From: Candidatus Poribacteria bacterium
Lineage (GTDB): Bacteria > Poribacteria > WGA-4E > WGA-3G
Direction: 5' to 3'
Assembly: GCA_963665235.2 (NCBI GenBank)
Contig: CAXXLX010000001.1
Location: 1,696,001-1,760,000, forward strand
DNA: 64,000 nucleotides
The position numbers and the translations under genes are program-made. The notes below the pieces were generated by a model. The model searched no databases. It worked only from the letters and a program-made list of their open reading frames with translations, and was not told where the DNA came from. Position 1 is the stretch's first letter. The number at the start of each line of letters is the position of its first letter. Shown here in pieces: positions 24,617 to 62,667 of the stretch.

Positions 24617-24862
24617 AAGTTTATGCTACAAAAGACCGCACAAACTAGGAAGTTTATGCTACAAAAGACCGCACAAACTAGGAAGTTTATGCTACAAAAG
24701 ACCGCACAAACTAGGAAGTTTATGCTACAAAAGACCGCACAAACTAGGAAGTTTATGCTACAAAAGACCGCACAAACTAGGAAGTTTATGCTACAAAAGA
24801 CCGCACAAACTAGGAAGTTTATGCTACAAAAGACCGCACAAACTAGGAAGTTTATGCTACAA
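24617..24862. repeat. 33-bp VNTR, 7.5 identical copies (AAGTTTATGCTACAAAAGACCGCACAAACTAGG) between pheS and pheT
   Basis: Perfect tandem units without spacers; the core is shared with the MITE internal repeat. Confidence 0.97.
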
Positions 24863-28438: not shown

Positions 28439-30426
28439 CTACCAATGCCACTGAAATGTGCCACCACTACAAGTACTATCGCCGCGGGTGCATCCTGTGT
28501 AGGTTGCCCCACAGTTGGTTCGCTTGCAGATTTTCTGTGTTTGGTGCCAACCCACATTGCCACAGGTCCAATAGGCATTACCACAATTGCTGCAAGCTGA
28601 GACATGGTGTTCTGTTCGTGAACTGACCTGTGCCATACAACTTGTCCAATTCCTTCCGCCACACACTATAGGATATGCATGTGTATGCGACTGACACACA
28701 TAGTAATACCATTTCTAATTGAAAATGTCTCTTTCTTGTAGCATAAACTTCCAGTTTGTGTTGTTTTTTGTAGCATAAACTTCCAGTTTGTGCTTTCTTG
28801 TAGCATAAACTTCCAGTTTGTGCTTTCTTGTAGCATAAACTTCCAGTTTGTGCTTTCTTGTAGCATAAACTTCCAGTTTGTGCTTTCTTGTAGCATAAAC
28901 TTTTAGTTTGGGTCTTCCGTTCTCCGTTTGATTTCTAACAACCGGTAATGATAGAATAATTAATAAAAATGGTATAAGAACCAGATGAGCAGTTATCCCC
29001 ATTGCTGTTTGTCGGACATGTTTCTGAACGATGGCTATAAGCCTGAGCAGACGTATACGAATGCCCACAGGCCCCAGAAATCAATGCAGGATACTGATGC
29101 GTATGCGACTGACAGGCATAGAAGCTCGTCACTGTGCAAGTTTGTCCATAACTATCTGTCCCTGAACAACTTGCTTGTAAAGCATGTGAACTTGAATTAC
29201 TATTCAAATCTTTGTGTCCACAAGAATATGTCTGATGTGATTGACACTCATAAAATGAACCGCTATACCCCGATATTGTGCTACTATGATCTGAAGAAGC
29301 TTGGCATAAATACCCAGAATGTGTGCCACACGCGTAAGTGCTATGTTTATGATCATCAGGGGTGCATGGAGAGTAGGTATGTCCGCAACTTCCGACAGAA
29401 GGTTCGTGGCTAGCGATCTGAGTAGTAGGAAATCTGTGTCCACAAGATCCTGCGATATCAGGTGGGTTTGGATCCGGAGAAGGTGGTGAAGGCTCTGAGT
29501 GAGTGTGAGCACACCGATAAACCCCCGTATCTGCACAGTTCACGTTAGAACACGTTTCTTCATAGAGGTGTGTCCACTTTTCCGTTTGCAGACAAAAATA
29601 GTATTGAGTATTGTCTTGCGGATTCGCGCACGCTATTCTGTGTGCATACTTACTCGATACCTTTTCAGAGCAACCAGCACATCTGTGAGTACCAGTCAGT
29701 TTTGGATTTTTAAATATGCGATGCTCAACAACCCATGAACCACTCTGACTATACTCAGTAGGAGCCAGGGAGGTATCCTTAGTCCAACCAAAGTTAGCAC
29801 CAGGTCCACCACCTACAGAACCCCCTAATGCATAGTGAACAGGTATAAGTTTTACCTTACCTGAAGCAGTCCAGTTATACGGAGCAGATGCTGTTCTGAA
29901 TTTTGGACCCTCAAGATGTTGATATACCTCATAATTCTCTACAAGATTGTAATTTGGCACAATTGGGATATAGTATCCCACCTTATCTTGTTTAGTCACT
30001 TCTGCAAACGTTTGTCCATAGACTTTTACCTTGAAATCAGAAAATTCAACATATCCAAAACCCGTTACAAAAGCACGCAACCAAAATTTAATTTTTTTCG
30101 GTGGTTTAGGATCCCAAAAATTGCGCTTAAATCCATTTGTCCATTCGATATCTCGGTACTGATATTTGCCGAGGGGATGCAGGTTGGAGCTAATGAAAAT
30201 CGGTTTATTGACATCCGCCCACCTGTCAAAATCAAGTCCGCTATGTACTGTGAAGAAAGCAAGCGGTGTAAAATAAATCTTGCCTCTTTCAAGCATGTTG
30301 TGTTTTCCTTTATGTGAGGATACGTTCACAATAAAACATAAACTGATAAAAAACGTGCATAAAGATAAAGAACAAAAATGTCTTTTCCAATTTTTAAAGT
30401 TAAACAAAGTTAAACATGGTAAGCAT
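28439..30426 (-). pseudogene. Secreted Cys/His-rich repeat protein, disrupted by a 10-bp duplication near the start and by a MITE insertion
   Basis: AGGAG-ATG at 30426 runs into a stop because of duplicated TGTTTAACTT. Removing the MITE joins ...CSSGSY to YVCQSHTHAYP, matching upstream repeats FYECQSH and FYACQSHTH. Confidence 0.85.
28707..28974 (-). mobile_element. MITE (268 bp), TIR TACCATTT...AAATGGTA, TAA target duplication, 6 internal 30-bp repeats
   Basis: TAA at 28704-28706 and 28975-28977; same ends as the copy at 36423-36534; interrupts a CDS. Confidence 0.92.
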
Positions 30427-47622: not shown

Positions 47623-48429
47623 TTAGGAAGTTGATTTTTGTGCTGCGATTTTTTGTTTTTGCTCCCTCAGTTTTTCTTGTATTTCGAGTTTTAGCCGAGA
47701 GAACAATTGATCCGATTCAGGTAACGTAATTGCATCGTTGTACAGACCATGGTAACTAACAGTAGCGTTCCGAAATCCCTGACTGGGTTTATTTAGAAAA
47801 CGAACGAGTAACTCAAAAAGCAGCTTTCCTCGAAGTTGAAGATTATATGCTGCCCTTATGTCTTTAACCCTCTGATGCTCTAAAGGGAGAAAATCTAAAC
47901 CAGATGCCAAAGTAGTTTTTCCAAGCGGAATAACTTTATTTAAACGATGTGCAACCTCCACATATTCCTCATCTCGGATGGACTTAAAGGTTTTTCCTAG
48001 GTTCTTCCCTAAATATTCTTCCACTTTATAGGCAAACCACATGCTAATTGAATCTAGCGTTTGATTGTATTCTATCTTATTTCCTACGCGACCCTTTAAA
48101 TTGACATGTGAGTACAGATCGTTTTCAATGCTATATCCTTCTGTCCAAATAATGTCGTTATATTGAGCCGGGATGCCTCTGAATAACCACATATCCTGAT
48201 CTGCGATAAAAGCAACAGGCACGTTGGCAAATTCACTTCTGCGCTCATAAACCTGAAGTAATTGTGGCCTTCCCCCTGCATACAGAACTTCTGCTGTTAT
48301 TTCCATTCGTTCGATTAATTCTCGATAGATGATTTGATCATCTTTCCCCTCAACGACAATATTAGGTACCCCAGAATGTTTCAGAGCCCCAACTACTACG
48401 TTTACTGTCATAGGATTTGGTGTTGGCAT
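47623..48429 (-). CDS. ariB: PARIS effector AriB (DUF4435/TOPRIM)
   Basis: IVVEGKDD, IADQD, YSIEN motifs; downstream of an ABC ATPase. Confidence 0.8.
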   Translation of the reverse strand: MPTPNPMTVNVVVGALKHSGVPNIVVEGKDDQIIYRELIERMEITAEVLYAGGRPQLLQVYERRSEFANVPVAFIADQDMWLFRGIPAQYNDIIWTEGYSIENDLYSHVNLKGRVGNKIEYNQTLDSISMWFAYKVEEYLGKNLGKTFKSIRDEEYVEVAHRLNKVIPLGKTTLASGLDFLPLEHQRVKDIRAAYNLQLRGKLLFELLVRFLNKPSQGFRNATVSYHGLYNDAITLPESDQLFSRLKLEIQEKLREQKQKIAAQKSTS

Positions 48430-48449
48430 TTAGATTCTCCTTTGATATA

Positions 48450-49574
48450 TTACGACTCATCAAACGGAAGTTCCTTGTCCGGGTACTGGGTATAGATAAA
48501 AGGTGAGTGTGTCGCGATGAAAAATTGATTGCCTGTCGCTTGTTGAAGCAAAACCCGTAGCAAGGAACGCTGCCAGTCCAAGTGCAGGCTTAGCTCCGGT
48601 TCATCAATGAAAATCGCTGTATCACTACTAAACGCGTTGTAGCACAGAAAACTGAGCATCTGTTTCTCCCCAGAAGAGAGCTGATCTGAGGGTCTGGTAC
48701 CGTTTTCCTTTCCAAGCGTAAACCCTTCAGCGACTTTAATTCCACTAGAAAAAATCCTATCAACAAAATCGTTTAAAGACGTTAAGGGTTTGCGTAACTC
48801 CTCTACCTCAGAAGCAGCTTCAGCAAGCTTTTGGCGAATCTGCTCCAAGATAGAATTAGTCTCTTGGAGTTCTGAAATAGGGTTGGCGGGGATTTTTTCT
48901 TCAAACTCACCTGACAAGTCTGCATAGATTGCATTTATCTTCTCAGAAATCTCAATATGTTCCTGCGGAACCAGTTCGACTATATCGTTTGTTGAAAATG
49001 AAACAACGAATTTATGATTGCCGACAGATCTCATATCCGCGAATTGTGCTATTACATCTTGAAGTGTTTTTGTTTCCCTTGTCGGGGCGTGTCCAGAACT
49101 CGTTTCTCGTCTTATTCGTCCAGGGGAACTAGATTCTGGAATTCGAGAAAAACCGCCTTCAATTCTTCTAAAACTTGGAAAGAATAGGCTGCTCTTCATA
49201 GTTTCCATTATACCTGCTTTGAGATCTGCACATTTCGTGTCAACATCTTCGTAATTGGTAATTAGCTCCTGGTCATATTCGTAATCGGTAGCTAGCTCAG
49301 GTTCATGTTCACCCGAAAAAGACCATCTAATAAGAAATTTATCGGCCTCATTGGTAATAGATAATTTAAATTGGCTGGTAGCAACCGAAACGAAGTCAAA
49401 CCTGATGCCAAGGGCACGTTCAATTTGGCCGCTGAAGAGGTACCATATTAGTTGCAGCAGCGTCGTCTTGCCTGAACCGTTTGCTCCGGTAATAATGTTC
49501 AAGTCTTCATTGAATTCTAACGTTGTGTTAACCTCGCCATTCAAGCCTTCAACTTCAAATCTTTCGATAATCAA
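48450..49574 (-). CDS. ariA: PARIS sensor AriA (AAA_15/21 ABC ATPase)
   Basis: GANGSGKT, LSSGEKQ, IDEPELSLH, ATHSP. Confidence 0.82.
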   Translation of the reverse strand: MIIERFEVEGLNGEVNTTLEFNEDLNIITGANGSGKTTLLQLIWYLFSGQIERALGIRFDFVSVATSQFKLSITNEADKFLIRWSFSGEHEPELATDYEYDQELITNYEDVDTKCADLKAGIMETMKSSLFFPSFRRIEGGFSRIPESSSPGRIRRETSSGHAPTRETKTLQDVIAQFADMRSVGNHKFVVSFSTNDIVELVPQEHIEISEKINAIYADLSGEFEEKIPANPISELQETNSILEQIRQKLAEAASEVEELRKPLTSLNDFVDRIFSSGIKVAEGFTLGKENGTRPSDQLSSGEKQMLSFLCYNAFSSDTAIFIDEPELSLHLDWQRSLLRVLLQQATGNQFFIATHSPFIYTQYPDKELPFDES

Positions 49575-49789: not shown

Positions 49790-51161
<1,372 letters not shown>

Positions 51162-51230
51162 GGTTCAAAACCCTGCCTTGTATCAGCTAGCGATTTGATT
51201 TAAAGCCAGGGAAAACGAAGGAACGCCGGC

Positions 51231-52409
51231 ATGAAACAGAAATATCAGATTGAAACTGTCACGCCTGTTCACATCGGTTCAGGTGAAACGTTGAACCATA
51301 TAAATGGTTACTACACCAACGGGAAGTGGTATCACATCGATTTGGAACGCGTCTTGGCGCATCCAAGTGCCGATGCCAATGTCTTAACGAGCGACATGGG
51401 GCAACGCAATTTCCGGTGGGAACGTTACCTTCGTCAGCACAATATGAATCCCGCGGAACTTTCTGCTTCTAGTTTTCCATGTCCACAAAACCCCGAAGAG
51501 GTTGAAATCCGGGAGGCGATCAAGGTGACTCATGATCAGCCTTTTATTCCAGGAAGCACACTCAAAGGTGCAATTCGGACAGCCCTATTATGGGAAATCC
51601 TGAATCAAAGCAGTGACGTTTATGAAAAGAGTCAAGAGCATTTGAACGAACTGATAAAGCGAGGCTCTCGTGGGAATCCCAGAAGAGAGCAACCTGCACG
51701 GCGGATAGAGACTCTCGCTTTCAGTAGTGATCCGAAACGCGGAGATCCGAATAGAGACCTTTTCCGCGCGTTACAGGTGAGTGATACTGCCCCACTTGAG
51801 AGTGATGCGCTTGAGATTGGCATGGCCTGGACGATGACGATTAATCGAAACAACAAACTCGTCCAGAAAATAGACAGAGGACGAGAGTATAAAAACTTCG
51901 TGCAGCAGATTCAAACGGGGCAGCGTCTGACGTTTACTCTCAAGATTGACGAGATGCTTTTCCGAGAAGACGAAAAGAATCGACTCAGTTTTACTGACCT
52001 ACAGCAGAAAACGCTCCAAGATATAGCGGAGGTGTGTCGCTCGGTAACCGACCAGCTCATGAAAAGTGAACGGGACTTCTTTTCCTACTATAGCCTCCCA
52101 GAAATCGCGAACATCTATGATAAACTCATCTCTTTAAATAGGAACCTCCCAGAAGGGGCATTCCTTTTGCAAATTGGGTGGGGCACCGGCTATCAAGCCA
52201 AAACCGTTTCGGCTGTTTTTACAGATGACGCAGAATTGCCTGTAAACTGGATGGACCTGCGTGAACGTTTTCGGTTAGGTGAGAGTCGTTCCCGACGCGG
52301 GCACTACGACGAACGCGAGTTCCCAAAAACACGGCGGATTTTATATCGTGGACAAAATCCGATTGCCCCCTTCGGTTGGATTAAAATTTCACCAGATGAA
52401 ACTGCTTGA
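51231..52409 (+). CDS. csm5: Type III-A RAMP Csm5
   Basis: TPVHIGSG, PFIPGSTLKGAIRTA, LQVSD, IGWGTGY..KT, PFGW. Confidence 0.93.
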   Translation: MKQKYQIETVTPVHIGSGETLNHINGYYTNGKWYHIDLERVLAHPSADANVLTSDMGQRNFRWERYLRQHNMNPAELSASSFPCPQNPEEVEIREAIKVTHDQPFIPGSTLKGAIRTALLWEILNQSSDVYEKSQEHLNELIKRGSRGNPRREQPARRIETLAFSSDPKRGDPNRDLFRALQVSDTAPLESDALEIGMAWTMTINRNNKLVQKIDRGREYKNFVQQIQTGQRLTFTLKIDEMLFREDEKNRLSFTDLQQKTLQDIAEVCRSVTDQLMKSERDFFSYYSLPEIANIYDKLISLNRNLPEGAFLLQIGWGTGYQAKTVSAVFTDDAELPVNWMDLRERFRLGESRSRRGHYDEREFPKTRRILYRGQNPIAPFGWIKISPDETA

Positions 52410-52434
52410 CAAAAAATGCCAGAGATGCTAAATT
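52406..52434 (+). promoter_or_regulatory. Internal sigma70 promoter upstream of cas10
   Basis: TTGACA-17 bp-TAAATT with TGn extended -10. Confidence 0.6.
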
Positions 52435-52519
52435 TAGTGTCCTAGCTTTGATAGTTCCGCGCCTCAAATATTGGTGCCGGAAGCACGGACACCTTAAACA
52501 ATTAACTGGACGAAACATC

Positions 52520-54841
52520 ATGAATCCTATTCTAAAATGGGCTCTACAGATCTTACGACAAATAGAAGAAACATCCATCGACAAAGACGAATCGGTGTCC
52601 GATGCATTGGAACTTGTAGGTATTGGAGCTGATCAGGTTCAAGTCAATCGCCAACCCTTACATTCCATCTTCTCGGTGACTGGTAAGAATCCCTCGGTCG
52701 TTAAGAAAGATATTCCCTGGCAGGTGTTGGACCCGCAAGAGATTGTTTATCCAACGGAGGATGCCGATAACACCGCGTTGAACATTCCTGAGCTTGAGCC
52801 GGATTGGGAAAGGTTTCTAGCGAACGAAAATCTCGCGCTTGTCCTAATCGAAAAGTATGGCACGTTTCTATCCATTTCACGTGATGTTCCGCACATCTCC
52901 TTCTACGATGCGGTTAAATCCGCAGCGGCGATTCACGATTGCCTTGTCCGTGATTCGGTAGATAAGGAGAAACCTTTTTTATTAGTTTCCGGGGATTTTT
53001 CTGGAATACAAGATACAATTTACACGATCGCCTCAAGTGGTGCGTTGAAAACGCTACGTGCACGTTCGTTCATGTTAGAACTTCTAACAGAACACATCAT
53101 CTATGAAATTCAGCAGCCTACGGGTTGTGGTCGCTATAGTCTTATCTTTTCAGGCGGTGGTGGGTTTAGTCTTCTCGTTCCGAACACAAGTGAGAATCAA
53201 GAGGCAATTGGCGATTTTATAAAAATTGTCAATAATTGGATGCTTGAGCAGTTTGGCTTGCAGCTATTCCTCGCTGTGCATTGTGAGCCTGTGAGTAAGG
53301 CAGACATCACAGGTAAAGGGTTCAAAGACATTTGGGAGTCCATGGCGGACAAGATGGCGAAGCAGAAGAAGCGTAAATTTTGGGATACCCCTGACTTTGA
53401 CAACCTATTCTGTCCAAAGATGCCGAAGCAATTGACAAACCGAGAGGCTTGTCGGATCACACATCGTGATGATCTACCGAATAGCGAAATGACTGATTGG
53501 GATGATGAGCCAAATGAGGAGGGTGAGAAGAGGCGCGTAAGCAAACTTGCCTACCGTTTGTGGGAATTAGGGGATCGGTTGACAGAGTTCAAGTACATCT
53601 TTAGACGTTCTTCACCCGTAGATGATTTTAAGGATGGGACGCTCCTATTTCCGACACATGATGGTTGCCAGGCAGAATATCAAACAACCGCTGATTTTGC
53701 ACAGATTAGTGATTATGAGGTTCGATGGTTTGTGAACAGTTGGGACGTTGGAAGTTACAAGGATAACAAGACCTTCCCGTTCCTCTTTGGTAGTTATGTT
53801 AAATCTGTAGCTGATTTACCGGGCGAAGTGCAAGACCATGAGAAGGAAGAGTACTTAAAAGACCACGGAAAGCAGATGCACCAACCAAAACGTGTAACTG
53901 CGTCTTTCTCTGGATTGGCAAAAGCGGCGAAGGGGATAAAACTCATCGGCTGCTTACGGATGGATGTGGACAATTTTGGTGAGCTGTTTTCCGGCGAGCT
54001 AGTGAAATCAGGTATCGCTGGACTCTCAAATCTCTCGCGCAGCATGAATCTGTTTTTTAAGGGGTACCTCAACGAAATTTGCGGCATGAATTTAGGTGAT
54101 TTGACGAAGGAGGGTTATCCGCTTGATATCACCGGAGAAAAACTGTCCCAAACAGATCGAAACCATCGGTACGTATCTATCGTCTATGCAGGCGGTGACG
54201 ATTTGTTTATCGTTGGTGCTTGGGATGATGTCGCCGAATTAGCGTTTGATATTAACACCTGTTTCAGAGAATTCTCCTGTTGCAACTCTGAGGTTCACCT
54301 TTCCGCCGGCGTAACGCTTCACAAGCCGAAGTTCCCACTATATCAGATGGCGAAAATGGCAGAGGATGCAGAAAAGGCCGCAAAGGCAAACGAAGAGAAG
54401 GAAAGTCTCTCGCTATTCTATACGGATACTCTCAGAAGATATAATAAGTTCCTGAATGACCGCATTAAGCAGGAAAACCGAAGGCGTACGAGTGCTGGTA
54501 AACAGTCTGATGATAGAATCGCGCTGGCTTCTAGATGGGATGAATATGACAGTGTTATTCAATTGACAAAGCAGTTGTACAAGTTGCGCCCGGATGTTCC
54601 GCATGGCCTCTACCGAAAACTGTTTGAGACGCTCAGAATTTGGCAAGAGGAAGGACCTTTGTATATGCCAATGCTCTCCTATACCAAATATCAGTTTGGC
54701 AAACAACAGGAAGGAACACCAGAAGCGAAAGAGTTAAAGGCGTTGCTAACAACCCTATTTCAGTCCGATCAGATGCGGAAATTACATATTCCGCTACATT
54801 GGGTGGAATATTTGAGTCGAGAAGGTGGAGGAGAAAGTTAA
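52520..54841 (+). CDS. cas10: Cas10/Csm1 with intact Palm domains, HD domain apparently absent
   Basis: SGDFSGIQ, LRARSFMLE, RMDVDNFG, YAGGDDLF (GGDD at 54191-54202); no N-terminal LLHDIGK. Confidence 0.95.
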   Translation: MNPILKWALQILRQIEETSIDKDESVSDALELVGIGADQVQVNRQPLHSIFSVTGKNPSVVKKDIPWQVLDPQEIVYPTEDADNTALNIPELEPDWERFLANENLALVLIEKYGTFLSISRDVPHISFYDAVKSAAAIHDCLVRDSVDKEKPFLLVSGDFSGIQDTIYTIASSGALKTLRARSFMLELLTEHIIYEIQQPTGCGRYSLIFSGGGGFSLLVPNTSENQEAIGDFIKIVNNWMLEQFGLQLFLAVHCEPVSKADITGKGFKDIWESMADKMAKQKKRKFWDTPDFDNLFCPKMPKQLTNREACRITHRDDLPNSEMTDWDDEPNEEGEKRRVSKLAYRLWELGDRLTEFKYIFRRSSPVDDFKDGTLLFPTHDGCQAEYQTTADFAQISDYEVRWFVNSWDVGSYKDNKTFPFLFGSYVKSVADLPGEVQDHEKEEYLKDHGKQMHQPKRVTASFSGLAKAAKGIKLIGCLRMDVDNFGELFSGELVKSGIAGLSNLSRSMNLFFKGYLNEICGMNLGDLTKEGYPLDITGEKLSQTDRNHRYVSIVYAGGDDLFIVGAWDDVAELAFDINTCFREFSCCNSEVHLSAGVTLHKPKFPLYQMAKMAEDAEKAAKANEEKESLSLFYTDTLRRYNKFLNDRIKQENRRRTSAGKQSDDRIALASRWDEYDSVIQLTKQLYKLRPDVPHGLYRKLFETLRIWQEEGPLYMPMLSYTKYQFGKQQEGTPEAKELKALLTTLFQSDQMRKLHIPLHWVEYLSREGGGES

Positions 54842-54911
54842 TGTGCTTCTCTCAAGAAAAGATTAATCCTCAGTTGAAAAACGGACTTACGCAATGGAGG
54901 AGTGACACAAA

Positions 54912-55964
54912 ATGGGTGATTTAAGAATCGTCAAACTTCGCTTCAGGTCAGCACTTCATTTAGGGACAGATATCCCTGGAATCGGGATTGAGGACAGTCT
55001 GACAATGGCTCACTCGGATACGTTGTTCAGCTGCCTAATCAATGCCTACGCCGAACTTCACTCCGGAAATCCAAACGCTGTTGACCCGTTGTTGGCACCG
55101 TTCCATGAGGGAAACCCTCCGTTTCGTATTTCGTCAGCGTTTCCATTCCAACAGAGTGAAAATAAAGTAAGGTATTATGTTCCGAGACCTCTGATAGATC
55201 CGCTAGAATTTTATGACCCCGGAGATGGACAGAGTGTTAGAAAGCTTTACGGTAAATTAGTCCGAAATCTGCCGTTCGTCAGTCTTGAGAGATTCAAAGG
55301 TTATTGGCTAGGCGAAGGAACAGATATCAATCTGGAAAAAAAAGGCTTAGAAACCGCAAATCAGGAAGTTCGCGGCTTATACGAACAAACAATTCGTCCA
55401 CAGCATACCAGGGACCGATTAACTGATACCACAGAAATCTACCATACAGGCTTAGTTTATTTCGCTCCTAATTCTGGATTGTATTTCCTGATTGAAATCA
55501 ACGATACATCCATCTTAAGTTGGGAGGACTTCCGGGCAGTCCTTGACTTGGCAGCATCAAACGGATTGGGGGGACGCCGCAGTCATGGAAATGGGGCTTT
55601 TGAGGTTAGAGAAATTGAGGAATTAGATGAAACATGGCAAGACTTATTTAAGCAGAAACAGGATGGATTCGTTAATCTGTCGCTCTATTGGCCTAAAACT
55701 CCTGGTCGCCTTGATCCAGTGGCATATCAGTTGGTGCCTCGACAGGGATGGTGTTATTCATCGGTTACCCCAACGCAGATGAAACGTAAAGCAGTCACAA
55801 TGTTCGGTGAGGGGTCCGTTTTCCGTAACGAGCCGAAAGGCGCGCTTGCAGACGTAACACCGGACAAGGGATTCACAGCACATGGACTCTATCGGTCCGG
55901 AATTTCAATTTCGTTGCCGATTAAGATCTTGGAAAAAGAAGATAAGGAAGATACGGAGGAATGA
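54912..55964 (+). CDS. csm4: Type III-A RAMP Csm4 (Cas5)
   Basis: HSDTLFS, ISSAFP, GLYF, GLGGRRSHGNG, MFGEGSVF. Confidence 0.94.
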   Translation: MGDLRIVKLRFRSALHLGTDIPGIGIEDSLTMAHSDTLFSCLINAYAELHSGNPNAVDPLLAPFHEGNPPFRISSAFPFQQSENKVRYYVPRPLIDPLEFYDPGDGQSVRKLYGKLVRNLPFVSLERFKGYWLGEGTDINLEKKGLETANQEVRGLYEQTIRPQHTRDRLTDTTEIYHTGLVYFAPNSGLYFLIEINDTSILSWEDFRAVLDLAASNGLGGRRSHGNGAFEVREIEELDETWQDLFKQKQDGFVNLSLYWPKTPGRLDPVAYQLVPRQGWCYSSVTPTQMKRKAVTMFGEGSVFRNEPKGALADVTPDKGFTAHGLYRSGISISLPIKILEKEDKEDTEE

Positions 55965-55968
55965 TACA

Positions 55969-57774
55969 ATGAACTTGCGGGAAATACTTAATAATTTTAA
56001 CAAAGAAGTCGCTTGGCGCGAATTTCGAGATAGAATAGTAGATGCTGTGCTAGACTACAATGAGGCGATTGCGGACGAAGTCGAAAACCCAGGAGATTCT
56101 CTAAATGGACTTCTACCTATATATTGGCAAATTGTACGGGCGCATAATACCTATAAATGGCCTATTGACCTCAAATTTATTCGCGAAAATCCAGAAGCTG
56201 CTCGAAAGATGTTAAGAGACCACAACCTTGCGGAAAAATTGGACCGGCTGATCGAATTGGACACACAGTGGCGCAAACTCTCCCAAAAAATCGAGGAGCA
56301 AACCGAGCCCGCGAACACACTCAAAACTGAAATAGATACCATCTTGTCGACAATTTCGGATCTGCCTGGCGTAAATTCCCACCCAAGCAATTCTGGCTAC
56401 GATGTTGGCATCTTTCTTGTTGGTTTTAGGAGTCTTCCGATTGTTCTTAGCCTTGCGGAGATTCAACCGCGCCAGGAAATTTATTTCATCCACTCAGAAG
56501 AGACTGGTACAAAGTGCGACGAGATTGCTAATAGAATTGAGGAGATGCTTGAATGTCCTCCTAATCCTTTAAAACCGTTAATCTCCGCCACGGACGCGAC
56601 AGCATTAATTAATCGTGTCCGAAGTGCCAATCGGTGCAAAATAGCGAATCCCTCCGATCCGGTCGAGACATTCAAAGAGATTAAGCGAATCATTGACAGT
56701 CTTGCATCCGACAAAAAAATTGCTCTTGATCTCACGGGTGGAAAGAAGACAATGATTGGCGGCGGTTTCACAGCCGGTTCAATATACTCTCTGTCGCCTA
56801 AATGCGATATGTTTTACGTTGATTCATCGGAGTACGACTCATATCAGGGTGCACCTAAACCAGGGACCGAATTCTTGAGTCAGCTTGACAATCCGTACAA
56901 TGTTTACAATGTGCAGAGCATCCGCGAAGCTGAAGCACTTTTCGATGGACACAATTATGAGGCAGCAGCTAGTTTGTGGGACACTGCTAATGAAAAACTT
57001 AATACCTATGCCAAACAATACGGTTTGCAACATGAGCAGGCTACAGTTCAAAAGAATCTTTATATGGCAAACTGTTACCGTTCTTGGGATGCTTTTGATT
57101 ATTCTGAGGCTCAGAGGCACAAGAATGATAACGGAAACCTATGGAGCTACCATACTAAGCACATTCACAACATTCACAATGATGTTCTTAACATTTTGGT
57201 AGAAGTGAATGATAAACAAACGCTTTTTGCCGATGAAAAAAGAGTTATCCATTTCGCCGTAGATCGATACCAGAATGCAATCAGACGAAAAAATAGTGAC
57301 AAACTCGAGGATGCAATCCTCCGCTTTACACAAGTTGTGGAAATCCTTTGCAACTATAAGATCCGTCAAATCGCACAAGGCGGAGACCTGCTTAACGAAA
57401 ACGGCTCAGTGATAACAACACCAAACACCCAATGGCGGAACTTTAAACTAATCCCCTTTTTGTTTGGAGCCGACCCATCAAGGTATGAAAGAAACGGAGG
57501 AAGATACTTCCAATTTCGAAGAGGGGCAAATGTGTGTTTGGAACTTGAGGATTATCCCGATTTCAACGATATTGGTGAAATAATGGTGCTGATCGAACGT
57601 AGGAATGATTTCGTTCATTTCAATCGTCCTATAGCGGACGAAGCGGAGGAAACAGCGGAAAAATTAAAAAATTTAGCATATCAGTTTCTTCTGAACTTCT
57701 CAACGACCTATCTTCAGAGGATGCGCCTAAATTTCTGCCGTTTATTAGAGCTTCATGAGTTTCGTCTATCCTAA
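55969..57774 (+). CDS. CARF-HEPN effector (TIGR02710/Csm6-like) with inserted SerRS N-terminal-like segment
   Basis: CARF LVGF..PIVLS and DLTGGKKTM; DNPY; Y.SWDAFDY; DAILR; HEPN RNDFVH; IDLKFIRENPE...LIELD segment. Confidence 0.85.
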   Translation: MNLREILNNFNKEVAWREFRDRIVDAVLDYNEAIADEVENPGDSLNGLLPIYWQIVRAHNTYKWPIDLKFIRENPEAARKMLRDHNLAEKLDRLIELDTQWRKLSQKIEEQTEPANTLKTEIDTILSTISDLPGVNSHPSNSGYDVGIFLVGFRSLPIVLSLAEIQPRQEIYFIHSEETGTKCDEIANRIEEMLECPPNPLKPLISATDATALINRVRSANRCKIANPSDPVETFKEIKRIIDSLASDKKIALDLTGGKKTMIGGGFTAGSIYSLSPKCDMFYVDSSEYDSYQGAPKPGTEFLSQLDNPYNVYNVQSIREAEALFDGHNYEAAASLWDTANEKLNTYAKQYGLQHEQATVQKNLYMANCYRSWDAFDYSEAQRHKNDNGNLWSYHTKHIHNIHNDVLNILVEVNDKQTLFADEKRVIHFAVDRYQNAIRRKNSDKLEDAILRFTQVVEILCNYKIRQIAQGGDLLNENGSVITTPNTQWRNFKLIPFLFGADPSRYERNGGRYFQFRRGANVCLELEDYPDFNDIGEIMVLIERRNDFVHFNRPIADEAEETAEKLKNLAYQFLLNFSTTYLQRMRLNFCRLLELHEFRLS

Positions 57775-59434: not shown

Positions 59435-60922
59435 TCAGAGATGTGCTATTGCGTTCCGAACTCGCTCTAGAACCGTGTCTCTGCCGAGTAGGATAATAAT
59501 ATCAAACAGGCTTGGTCCGAACGATGTGCCTGTCAGCGCAATTCGCAAGGTTTGCATTGCTACAACCCGTTTGATGTCGTTCTCATCCGTGTATTTATAG
59601 ATTGCAGTTTCAACTGTCTCCGCGTCAAAAGCGGGGATTTCTTCCAAAATCTGCAAGAGATTTGTCAGGATTTCAGCCGTTTTCTGCCGTTTTTCTGCGG
59701 AGCTGCCCCACCATTTTTTGACCGCCTTCTCTTCGTATTCATCAACGTCCGCAAAGAAATAACGGGTTTGTGGAACGATATCCTCTAACGTTGTGAGCCG
59801 TTCGCCGACAGCCTCAACGAGCTTCTCAAGGTGGGTGCGACGTTCCATTGTCAAGTCGGCTGTCTTGACCAAACCTGCTTCCTGCCAAAAGGGTATCACA
59901 GCATCGGTTCGAGCGGAAAGCGAGAGTTGGGCGATGTAGTGGGTATTGAGCCATTGCAATTTTTTTATATCAAAAACACTGCCGCTTTTGCCAACGCGCG
60001 CGAGGTCAAATTTCTCTATGAGTTCCGTAACAGAGAAAATCTCCTGTTTGTCGTCGTAGGACCACCCGAGTCTGGCAACGAAGTTAATCATCGCTTCAGG
60101 CAGATACCCCTGTTCACGATACCGATTGACAGCGACAAGGTCACCGTGATGACGTTTGCTTAGCTTCCTGCCAGTCTCATCCAAGACAAGGGGGATATGT
60201 GCAAATTTAGGTGGTGTAAAACCTATTGCGTTCGCAATAGCAATCTGTTTCGAGGTGTTATTGAGATGCTCTGTTCCGCGGATGACATGTGTAATCCGCA
60301 TGTCCGCATCGTCTATAATCGAGGCAAAATTGTAACTCGGCATTCCATTTGAACGGACGATAACCTCATCCTCTAGGGTGTTTGCATCTATATCCCGCGT
60401 GCCGAGGATAAGGTCAGGGACGTGTATCGGGTCGTCAGGCATCTTAATTCGGACTGTAGGTTTTCTGCCCTGCGCGGAAAAACGTTGTTTGTCTGCGAGC
60501 ATCAGGTGTCGGCATCTCCTGTCATAAGAGAGGGTCTGCTTTTCAGCGCGCGCTTGCGCCCGAATTTCTGCTAACTCCTCAGGTGTGCAGTAGCAGTGAT
60601 AGGCGTTTTCCTCTTGAAGCAGTTGTTCGACGTAAGGCTCGTAAATATGTCTCCGTTCTGATTGTACATAGTGCTCGGTCCAGTCGATGCCTAACCATTT
60701 GAGGGATTCGTAAATATGGCGCATAGATTCATCGGTAGACCGTGCTGTATCGGTATCATCAATGCGGAGTATGAACGTGCCGTTGTGCTGTTTGGCAAAT
60801 AACCAATTGAATAACGCGGTGCGTGCGCCGCCGATGTGTAAGAAACCGGTGGGGGATGGTGCCATTCGGACGCGGACGTGGTTTTTCACTGGGGTTGTTG
60901 CGTTGCTAGATGTTTCGGTCAT
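59435..60922 (-). CDS. gltX: Glutamate--tRNA ligase
   Basis: [21 protein letters not shown]; ATGA overlap with glnS. Confidence 0.96.
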
Positions 60923-62667
60923 TTCCGTGCCCCCTGAATTTTTGCCCAAGTATCTCGAAGTGGTACTGTCCTATTGAATACCAATTTTTCTTGCGTTGTA
61001 TCCACATCGACACAAAAGTATCCCATTCTGAGGAACTGATATCGTGTTTCGGGGGGTGCGCCGTTGAGACTCGGTTCAACTTTGCATCCATCTATAATCT
61101 CCAAGGAGTTCGGATTGATAAACTGTGTCCACTCCGTGCCATCCGCTGCGTTTTCTGGTTCGCGTTCGGTGAATAGGGTGTCGTAGAGGCGGACTTCAGC
61201 GTCCACGGCGTGTTGGGCAGAAACCCAATGTAACGTGCCTCGTACCTTGCGTCCATCTTCGGACCAGCCGCCTCGTGTTTCGGGGTCATAAGTGCAATGA
61301 ATCTGAACGATTTCGCCTGTGTTTGGGTCTTTGACAACGCGTTCGCAACGGATATAGTAAGCGTGCTTGAGGCGTACTTCTCGTTCTGGTGCCAATCGGA
61401 AAAATTTTCGGGGTGGGTTTTCCATAAAATCTTCGCGTTCTATGTAGAGTTCACGTGAGAACGGAATTTTGCGTGTGCCGGCGTTTTCATCTTCAGGGTT
61501 ATTGTCAGCGTCAAACATTTCCACTTTTCCATCTGGATAGTTGTCAATGATAACTTTAACAGGATTAAGGACAGCCATGACGCGCGGTGCACGCTGATTC
61601 AGGTCACTCCGTATAGAATACTCAAGTTGGCTCATCTCGATTAAATTATCTGCCTTTGAAACCCCGATTCGGTTGCAAAAATCACGAATGGCTTCTGGCG
61701 TATACCCGCGGCGACGCATTCCGGCGAGCGTAGGTAACCTTGGGTCATCCCAGCTGTTGACGTGTCCTTCCTGTAAGAGGACTTTGAGCTTCCGTTTGCC
61801 GAGCACGGTGTATGTGAGATTTAAGCGAGCGAATTCTATCTGCCGGGGTTGGTAAATCTCAAGTTCCTTCAAAAACCAGTCGTAGAGGGGGCGGTGGTCT
61901 TCAAACTGAACGTCACATAAAGAGTGTGTTATGCCTTCGATGGAATCGGATTGTCCATGGGTAAAGTCGTAGGTTGGATAGATACACCATGCGTCGCCGT
62001 GTCGATAGTGGTGTGCTCGGAGGATACGATACATGACAGGGTCACGCATATTTAGATTTGGACTGGTCATGTCAATTTTTGCGCGGAGCGTTCGGGCTCC
62101 GTCTGGAAATTCGCCGTTGCGCATCCCGCGGAAAAGCGTTAAATTCTCCTCTACTGTCCGGTTTCGGTAAGGGCTGTCTTTGCCGGGGGTCACTAAAGTG
62201 CCGCGATACGTTCGCATTTGGTCGGGTGTTAGGTCACAAACGTAAGCCTTGCCTTTTTCGATGAGTTTGATAGCGTATTCATAGAGAGTTTCGAAATAAT
62301 CTGATGCGTGATATTCGCGTTCTTTCCAATCAAACCCGAGCCATCGGACATCGCGTTTAATTCCCTCTACATATTCAATTTCTTCTGTGAGCGGGTTGCT
62401 GTCATCAAATCGTAGGTTGTAAAGTCCGCCATAATTTTCGGCGATTCCGAAGCTGATGCATATAGCTTTAGCGTGGCCGATATGAAGATACCCGCTGGGT
62501 TCCGGTGGAAATCGGGTGTGGACCCTGCCTTCATACCTATTTGCTGCGATGTCTTCTTCGATTGCTTGCTGTATAAAGTTAGTGTCCGAGGCGGTGTTAG
62601 TGTTTTCTTGTGCTTTCGTGTTCGGTCTGTTTTTGGAGGCCTTTAAGTTGGCATCTGCATGTTTCAT
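60919..62667 (-). CDS. glnS: Glutamine--tRNA ligase
   Basis: [38 protein letters not shown]. Confidence 0.97.

Follow-up and report, generated by a model that had tools for sequence, protein, structure and literature searches.

A truncated copy of the seryl-tRNA synthetase arm within a Csm6-like protein of a Candidatus Poribacteria bacterium, probably carried as a tolerated passenger

Here we describe a csm6-like gene encoded in a 64,000-nucleotide stretch of the genome of a Candidatus Poribacteria bacterium (assembly GCA_963665235.2, contig CAXXLX010000001.1, positions 1,696,001 to 1,760,000 of the forward strand). This whole stretch is denoted the window, and all positions given below are counted from its first letter. 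The gene is the final one of a type III-A CRISPR operon, and its product, P0001, consists of an N-terminal helical domain, an insert derived from serS, the gene for seryl-tRNA synthetase (SerRS), and the CARF, 6H and HEPN domains, in this order (Table 1). Sequence comparison shows the insert to be a copy of codons 2-39 and 78-107 of the serS gene of the same genome, and its substitution rate since then appears to have been neutral or close to neutral. Thus described, P0001 is probably a normal Csm6, activated by cyclic oligoadenylate (cOA), that carries a tolerated serS-derived passenger with no part in directing substrate choice.

The relationship of the insert to SerRS is evident at the protein level. 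Residues 66-124 of P0001 match the Pfam family PF02403 (Seryl_tRNA_N) with an E-value of 1.2e-9; the score of 38.8 bits exceeds the gathering score of 28.2, and the same match reached 43.2 bits in the genome-wide scan. The NCBIfam serS model also matches P0001, weakly (E 0.002), as do four SerRS entries among the PDB sequences (E 0.03-0.47). The boundaries of the insert can be placed more precisely in the DNA: homology to serS starts exactly at codon 2 (56164) and ends after codon 107, at ...CTGCCTG (56367), and the insert is in frame at both junctions. HMMER placed the segment on positions 2-61 of the PF02403 profile, an assignment that the DNA alignment corrects to 2-39 and 78-107. The junction 56277/56278 is the site of a 114-nucleotide deletion that comprises the 38 serS codons 40-77. 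In serS, the skipped 114 nucleotides are bounded by a 7-nucleotide direct repeat, GCGCGAA, a hallmark of a slipped-strand or microhomology-mediated deletion. Given that serS codons 2-107 make up nearly the entire 108-position Pfam domain, the complete arm was captured, with the distal coiled coil lost at or after the insertion. An in-frame TGA is located three codons before the serS start, so that an insertion that started much further upstream would not have been open.

The insert occupies the linker that connects the N-terminal helical domain to CARF. Residues 65-133 are absent from all 27 aligned homologues, which were chosen from the best 120 of 153 search matches, and the linker, 83 residues long in P0001, spans 5-34 residues (median 15) in 135 homologues. 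The site is prone to insertion and deletion. The closest relative, P0002 (about 59-65% identity), contains its own, different and shorter insert of about 20 residues in the same linker (columns about 101-190 of alignment A1), which looks as though the ...C-x-PSNSG stretch had been duplicated in tandem.

The donor of the insert was the serS gene of this genome, which has a single such gene, coding for 429 amino acids and located about 1.39 Mb from csm6 on the same contig. Positions 56164-56367 of the window align to the 5' end of this gene as two segments, with identities of 76% and 83%. When the 69 codons common to both are compared, the nucleotide identity of the insert to the genome's own serS is 78.3%, and its identity to the serS genes of 29 others in the same taxonomic family is 62.3-71.0%. 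In the maximum likelihood tree, the insert and the own serS are separated from the 29 others with an ultrafast bootstrap of 99, with branch lengths of 0.349 for the insert and 0.128 for the own serS. The synonymous divergence (dS, NG86) between the insert and the own serS is 0.41, lower than the values of 1.0-2.4 between the own serS and five orthologues, from which we infer that the copy was made within this lineage, after its split from the sampled genera. A foreign serS donor was considered and rejected, because the insert groups with the own serS and the differences between the two are not concentrated at third codon positions. The first 27 nucleotides of the insert (56164-56190) are identical to the own serS, and the remainder is about 75-80% identical; a rough estimate does not clearly set this identical run apart from what chance would give. 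The genome contains a third match to PF02403, which scores 22.5 bits, under the cut-off, and falls in a flotillin-like coiled-coil protein; it was dismissed as a chance match.

To characterize the substitution regime, we compared the insert with the own serS codon by codon. The two differ at 45 nucleotides, distributed as 18, 13 and 14 over codon positions 1, 2 and 3, and at 25 amino acids. A simulation without selection, in which 45 substitutions were placed randomly with the same share of transitions and no stop codons, gave an expectation of 28.0 +/- 2.6 amino acid differences (P 0.17 for the 25 observed). In the control comparison of the own serS with an orthologue (L022), the number of nucleotide differences is also 45, the distribution is 8/10/27, and there are 15 amino acid changes, a value that was as low in 0 of 5000 simulations. 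Pairwise omega, the ratio of nonsynonymous to synonymous divergence, is 0.53 (NG86) or 1.22 (YN00) for the insert and the own serS, and 0.05-0.19 among orthologues. When the amino acid changes were polarised against relatives, 15 were assigned to the insert side and 3 to the serS side, with 7 ambiguous, and among the 30 positions that are invariant in all 30 SerRS sequences, 9 are altered in the insert. By codon positions, by the neutral simulation and by the invariant sites alike, the insert gives no indication of purifying selection of the kind that acts on SerRS. That the insert has kept an open frame would be due to selection on the CARF-HEPN region downstream.

The insert is also the only poorly determined region in the AlphaFold2 (AF2) model of the full-length protein, with a predicted local distance difference test (pLDDT) of 61-81. 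In this model, it forms a short hairpin with helices at residues 68-73, 75-83, 88-108 and 114-130. The segment folded alone, with an alignment of 23 SerRS N-domains, was predicted as two short helices and one continuous helix of 43 residues. A Foldseek search with the isolated model returned two SerRS chains as its sole matches, with non-significant E-values of 0.86 and 2.0, and these were not counted as a structural match. Compared with the 23 SerRS N-domains, the insert shows a gap of 38 residues, and it does not have the complete long antiparallel coiled coil. From the symmetry of the arm, which covers serS residues 27-102, its turn can be placed tentatively at about residues 62-66, in which case the deletion would have taken out the tip together with about 24 residues on the ascending side and about 10 on the descending side. 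With these residues lost, the native antiparallel pairing could not be kept.

We next consider the distribution of the insert. A phmmer search with the segment against the 262 collected family proteins recovered P0001 only; in a collection of this small size, the next best match had E 0.081. Of the 176 phylum genomes scanned, four contain two PF02403 matches, and the second match is in a long frame other than serS only in the genome analyzed here; in the other three, it belongs to a second full-length serS (G127) or to short frames of 163 and 68 amino acids (G102 and G143), the latter two in assemblies with 6-7% contamination. The nearest Csm6 among 40 related genomes, which include no other member of the same genus, has no insert (G001, 53%). 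Contigs from the runs of three samples (records 1, 9 and 15) bridge both insert junctions with 0 differences; the three samples come from one study, and one of them may be the source of the genome. In a contig from run X3, position 56160 is followed by GGA and then by 56371, so that 56161-56370 is skipped. This contig is 210 nucleotides long, with a depth of 5 and 6 differences over 109 nucleotides, the two listed ones at third codon positions, and it comes from the same run as an insert-bearing contig.

Searches beyond these genomes produced no further cases. A scan of metagenome contigs with P0001 yielded 72 pattern matches, none of which was confirmed, and a protein atlas search with residues 62-136, with PF00587 clusters left out, retrieved SerRS N-terminal fragments only (score 0.77, below the lead level). 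In the main texts of the papers searched on CARF with seryl-tRNA synthetase and on Csm6 or HEPN with tRNA, no Csm6 with an aminoacyl-tRNA synthetase (aaRS) module was found described. The combination of CARF-HEPN with a SerRS arm is real and, as far as these searches reach, undescribed.

Outside the insert, P0001 is a recognizable member of the Csm6 family. Its PADLOC matches are CARF_HEPN (4.1e-53) and Csx1/Csm6 (1.1e-40). The match to TIGR02710 (3.8e-19, 68.9 bits) is below the curated cut-off of 83.9, and P0001 therefore represents a diverged subfamily. The best solved relative in a PDB sequence search is Thermus thermophilus Csm6 (TtCsm6; E 1e-10). The AF2 model, built with a 137-sequence alignment, has a mean pLDDT of 91.2 and a predicted template modelling score (pTM) of 0.83, and in a Foldseek search with this model, TtCsm6 chains occupied ranks 1-8 (E 1.9e-15 to 9e-14, best prob 1.00), with a match that spans about 517 columns at 17-18% identity in the structural alignment. 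The CARF domains of Cam1, Card1 and Can2 were also among the matches. The CARF motif DLTGGKK corresponds to D254-K260 (56728-56748), with G258, K259 and K260 invariant in the 137 sequences. The R-x4-H motif of HEPN, R545..H550 (57601-57618), is contained in RRNDFVH; neither residue varies in 28 sequences, and each is conserved in at least 90% of the 137. The N-terminal helical domain is common to the subfamily of P0001 and matched no Pfam family at E<=0.01. The ATG at 55969 lies 5 nucleotides past the csm4 stop, with GGAGG upstream, and the start methionine of the homologues is equivalent to the one encoded there. In 5 of the 27 aligned homologues (P0015, P0045, P0048, P0085 and P0117), the protein continues past HEPN with about 75 further residues that are conserved; P0001 is without this C-terminal extension.

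Taken together, the conserved CARF and HEPN motifs, the TtCsm6 fold and the adjoining csm operon indicate that the csm6-like gene most likely encodes an ancillary RNase of the type III-A system. A first-pass annotation, made from the letters of the window alone, had already proposed a type III CARF-HEPN effector in this open reading frame, and most of its observations stand: the frame is located where it was placed, the two catalytic and ligand-binding motifs occur in invariant or nearly invariant columns, and the SerRS-like segment is borne out both by the profile match and, most strongly, by the DNA match to the own serS. What it described as a shortened coiled coil is accounted for by the internal deletion of 38 codons, and its failure to recognise the architecture among described effectors agrees with our searches.

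Table 1. Location of the csm6-like gene, its parts and the upstream operon in the window
Feature	Position	Strand	Basis or content
csm6-like gene (P0001), 601 aa	55969..57774	+	open reading frame and translation
N-terminal helical domain, residues 1-64	55969..56160	+	W16, Y30, L49, Y52 conserved; AF2 pLDDT 87-96
69-codon insertion, P65-P133	56161..56367	+	one filler codon and 68 codons copied from serS
Copy of serS codons 2-39	56164..56277	+	76% nucleotide identity to own serS; two short helices and base of ascending arm helix
Copy of serS codons 78-107	56278..56367	+	81-83% nucleotide identity to own serS; proximal descending arm helix
CARF domain, about residues 144-312	56398..56904	+	AF2 Rossmann-like strand/helix pattern, pLDDT >90; aligns to TtCsm6 CARF
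6H helical domain, about residues 314-404	56908..57180	+	Pfam PF22205 Csm6_6H, E 5.5e-4, below cut-off; AF2 helices
HEPN domain, about residues 423-595	57235..57753	+	Pfam PF09670 Csm6 HEPN, weak, E 0.021; TtCsm6 fold match
Type III-A effector operon, upstream of csm6	49790..55964	+	five NCBIfam equivalog models, each above cut-off
csm2	49790-50335	+	NCBIfam, above cut-off
csm3	about 50310-51161	+	NCBIfam, above cut-off
csm5	51231-52409	+	NCBIfam, above cut-off
cas10/csm1	52406-54841	+	NCBIfam, above cut-off
csm4	54912-55964	+	NCBIfam, above cut-off

Comparison with TtCsm6 (PDB 5fsh, 8jbb, 8jbc, 8jh1), the best match of P0001 by both sequence and fold, suggests how the protein may work. The two share the CARF-6H-HEPN order, the DLT-G-K loop and the R-x4-H motif of HEPN, and the gene for P0001 adjoins a type III-A Csm operon; P0001 differs from TtCsm6 by the conserved 64-residue N-terminal helical domain of its own subfamily and by the unique 69-residue serS-derived insert. 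Several of the top Foldseek entries for TtCsm6 are, by their titles, complexes with cyclic tetra-adenylate (cA4) or A2>p, and by analogy we adopt as a working model that P0001 would sense cA4, with self-limiting cleavage of the ring. The Cas10 protein of the adjoining Csm complex would make cOA upon binding target RNA, the CARF dimer would bind it, probably as cA4, and the HEPN dimer would then cleave RNA. In Cas10, the palm2 and Csm1_B domains were detected, with GGDD inside YAGGDDLF, and the HD nuclease domain was not detected (Pfam, E<=0.01); the NCBIfam model aligns to this protein from profile position 67 onward only. The type III-A system may be one that relies chiefly on cOA signalling and Csm6.

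The origin of the insert can be reconstructed along the following lines. A DNA copy of codons 2-107 of the own serS was inserted, in frame and in this lineage only, into the linker of variable length that separates the N-terminal helical domain from CARF. Then or later, codons 40-77 would have been lost by slippage between the two GCGCGAA repeats, and the distal antiparallel coiled coil with them. The remnant would subsequently have gathered substitutions at about the neutral rate, its frame maintained solely because losing it, through a frameshift or stop, would abolish the CARF-HEPN part downstream. If this reconstruction is right, the gene provides a clean and datable example of a domain architecture that arose in a defence gene from an essential host gene, and the sequences record the donor and boundaries of the insert, the way in which it was shortened and the regime of its substitutions. 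It also illustrates that a significant Pfam match inside an effector is not in itself evidence of co-option.

Several observations weigh against the view of the insert as a neutral passenger. The NG86 omega of 0.53 and the 25 amino acid changes, against 28 expected, lean slightly to weak constraint. At 69 codons, the test has little power, and an omega near 1 could also arise if adaptive and purifying changes were combined after co-option. The insert keeps 21 of the 30 family-invariant SerRS residues, still scores above the Pfam PF02403 cut-off, and is still predicted to be helical, both in the full-length model and in isolation. The capture of precisely one domain (codons 2-107) would fit an originally useful module as well. 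The insert allele has persisted in a population, being bridged in three samples. The X3 contig, which represents a related, insert-free csm6 allele, is a weak witness, with a short side of 27 nucleotides and a depth of 5. Finally, in a sample of genomes that comprises no others of the genus, conservation could be gauged only at a wider distance.

Some of these points would equally suit a function of the insert unrelated to tRNA, for example, as a helical spacer or hairpin that alters the geometry of the dimer, in autoinhibition, in the binding of a partner, or in blunting a phage inhibitor aimed at the N-terminus. We consider such a function unlikely. The position of the insert between two well-folded domains and its predicted helicity are compatible with it, as is the in-frame persistence in three samples, and surfaces engaged in an arms race are also expected to change amino acids fast; the different insert of P0002 at the same site could even mark a hot spot of innovation. 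However, positive evidence was found for none of these functions, the uniform use of codon positions is most simply neutral, and selection on the domains downstream would keep the frame in any case. In the homologues, the linker varies over its range of 5-34 residues with no sign that its length matters.

The first-pass annotation went further and proposed that an aaRS module had been co-opted to steer the HEPN nuclease to tRNAs with a long variable arm. In this scenario, the serS arm would dock class II tRNAs on Csm6, and their cOA-triggered cleavage would stop translation; the SerRS stub would grip the elbow or variable arm of class II tRNA and thereby bias the cOA-activated Csm6 to tRNA-Ser, Leu, Tyr or Sec. 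We regard both the co-option and this mode of binding as improbable. PrrC and RloC are HEPN nucleases that cut tRNA, and the tRNA-directed HEPN enzymes known to us recognise tRNA without an aaRS-derived module. The segment does descend from the tRNA-binding domain of SerRS, and the precision of the capture and the presence of the allele in three samples would be in keeping with steering. Precedents can be cited as well. Cas13 is a tRNA-cutting HEPN nuclease (bioRxiv 10.64898/2025.12.03.690598). It has in common with PrrC, RloC and P0001 an HEPN active site of the R-x4-6-H type, and cleavage of tRNA as the outcome of abortive infection underlies the steering idea. In the METTL6-tRNA-Ser-SerRS sandwich, SerRS, whose arm holds the variable arm, presents tRNA-Ser to a second enzyme, METTL6 (PMC10817482); there, however, a complete SerRS dimer acts in trans, whereas in P0001 a truncated fragment would act in cis in a putative role.

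The evidence from the insert itself points away from tRNA steering. An intact SerRS arm recognises the long variable arm and acts across the dimer with the catalytic domain (PMC10817482, PMC9427863). This context is missing in P0001: although the insert is homologous to the SerRS arm by descent, it is without codons 40-77 and without the class II catalytic core. The 38 missing residues of the coiled coil include the tip, and, if the helix mapping holds, their removal has deprived the descending helix of its pairing partners. The fold predicted for the insert is ambiguous and of low confidence, codon positions are used uniformly, amino acid divergence is near-neutral, and 9 of the 30 invariant SerRS sites are changed. 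The insert is a singleton among the 262 relatives, sits at a site that is prone to indels, and is lacking from a related allele in one sample. The annotation had held that uniqueness of the insert to this assembly would count against its proposal; the insert is not confined to the assembly, being carried in three samples, but it is unique to the lineage, and the homologues sought with and without it turned out to be relatives without it, save for P0001. Beyond ancestry, nothing was found in favour of tRNA steering, which is unsupported, and this part of the annotation is not sustained. If the remnant did bind tRNA, it would represent a novel way for type III immunity to become substrate-specific and offer a template for engineered, targeted Csm6 proteins, and a defence nuclease that gained its specificity from a housekeeping aaRS module of the host would have been caught soon after the event; the evidence does not favour this.

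An artefact of assembly or binning, with serS reads chimerically joined into csm6, is scarcely credible: the estimated contamination of the assembly is 5.65%, and the conserved 5' end of serS draws short contigs of other organisms, with depth peaks at 56170-56196, but the insert is 78% identical to the own serS and less so to the 29 others, and hence is not misplaced serS, both junctions are in frame, and the bridging contigs of three samples, with 0 differences, rule out an assembly chimera.

Returning to P0001 as a probable ordinary Csm6 with a passenger, its genomic neighbourhood is that of a defence locus. Directly upstream of the csm operon, on the minus strand (47623-49574), are matches to AriA (374 amino acids, 5.2e-30) and AriB (268 amino acids, 3.7e-10) of the PARIS defence system. 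With these genes adjoining it, the type III-A operon lies within a small defence island. No array, cas6 or cas1/cas2 was seen beside the csm operon within the window. A CRISPR-like array is present at 17-528, reaching the start of the window; it comprises at least 8 repeats, each about 33 nucleotides long, with a spacing of 66-70 nucleotides, and the csm operon is about 49 kb away.

About 1.7 kb downstream of csm6, two genes for class I aminoacyl-tRNA synthetases of the Glu/Gln type are encoded on the minus strand (59435-62667), both with matches to Pfam tRNA-synt_1c (2e-105 and 6e-101). A tie between these genes and the insert was considered, and nothing supporting it was found. Elsewhere in the window, two perfect or near-perfect tandem arrays occur at 24617-24862 (33 nucleotides x 7.5) and 28731-28910 (30 nucleotides x 5.9). 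Over a common core, the unit of one array is the reverse complement of the other's, and the arrays lie inverted on either side of about 3.9 kb.

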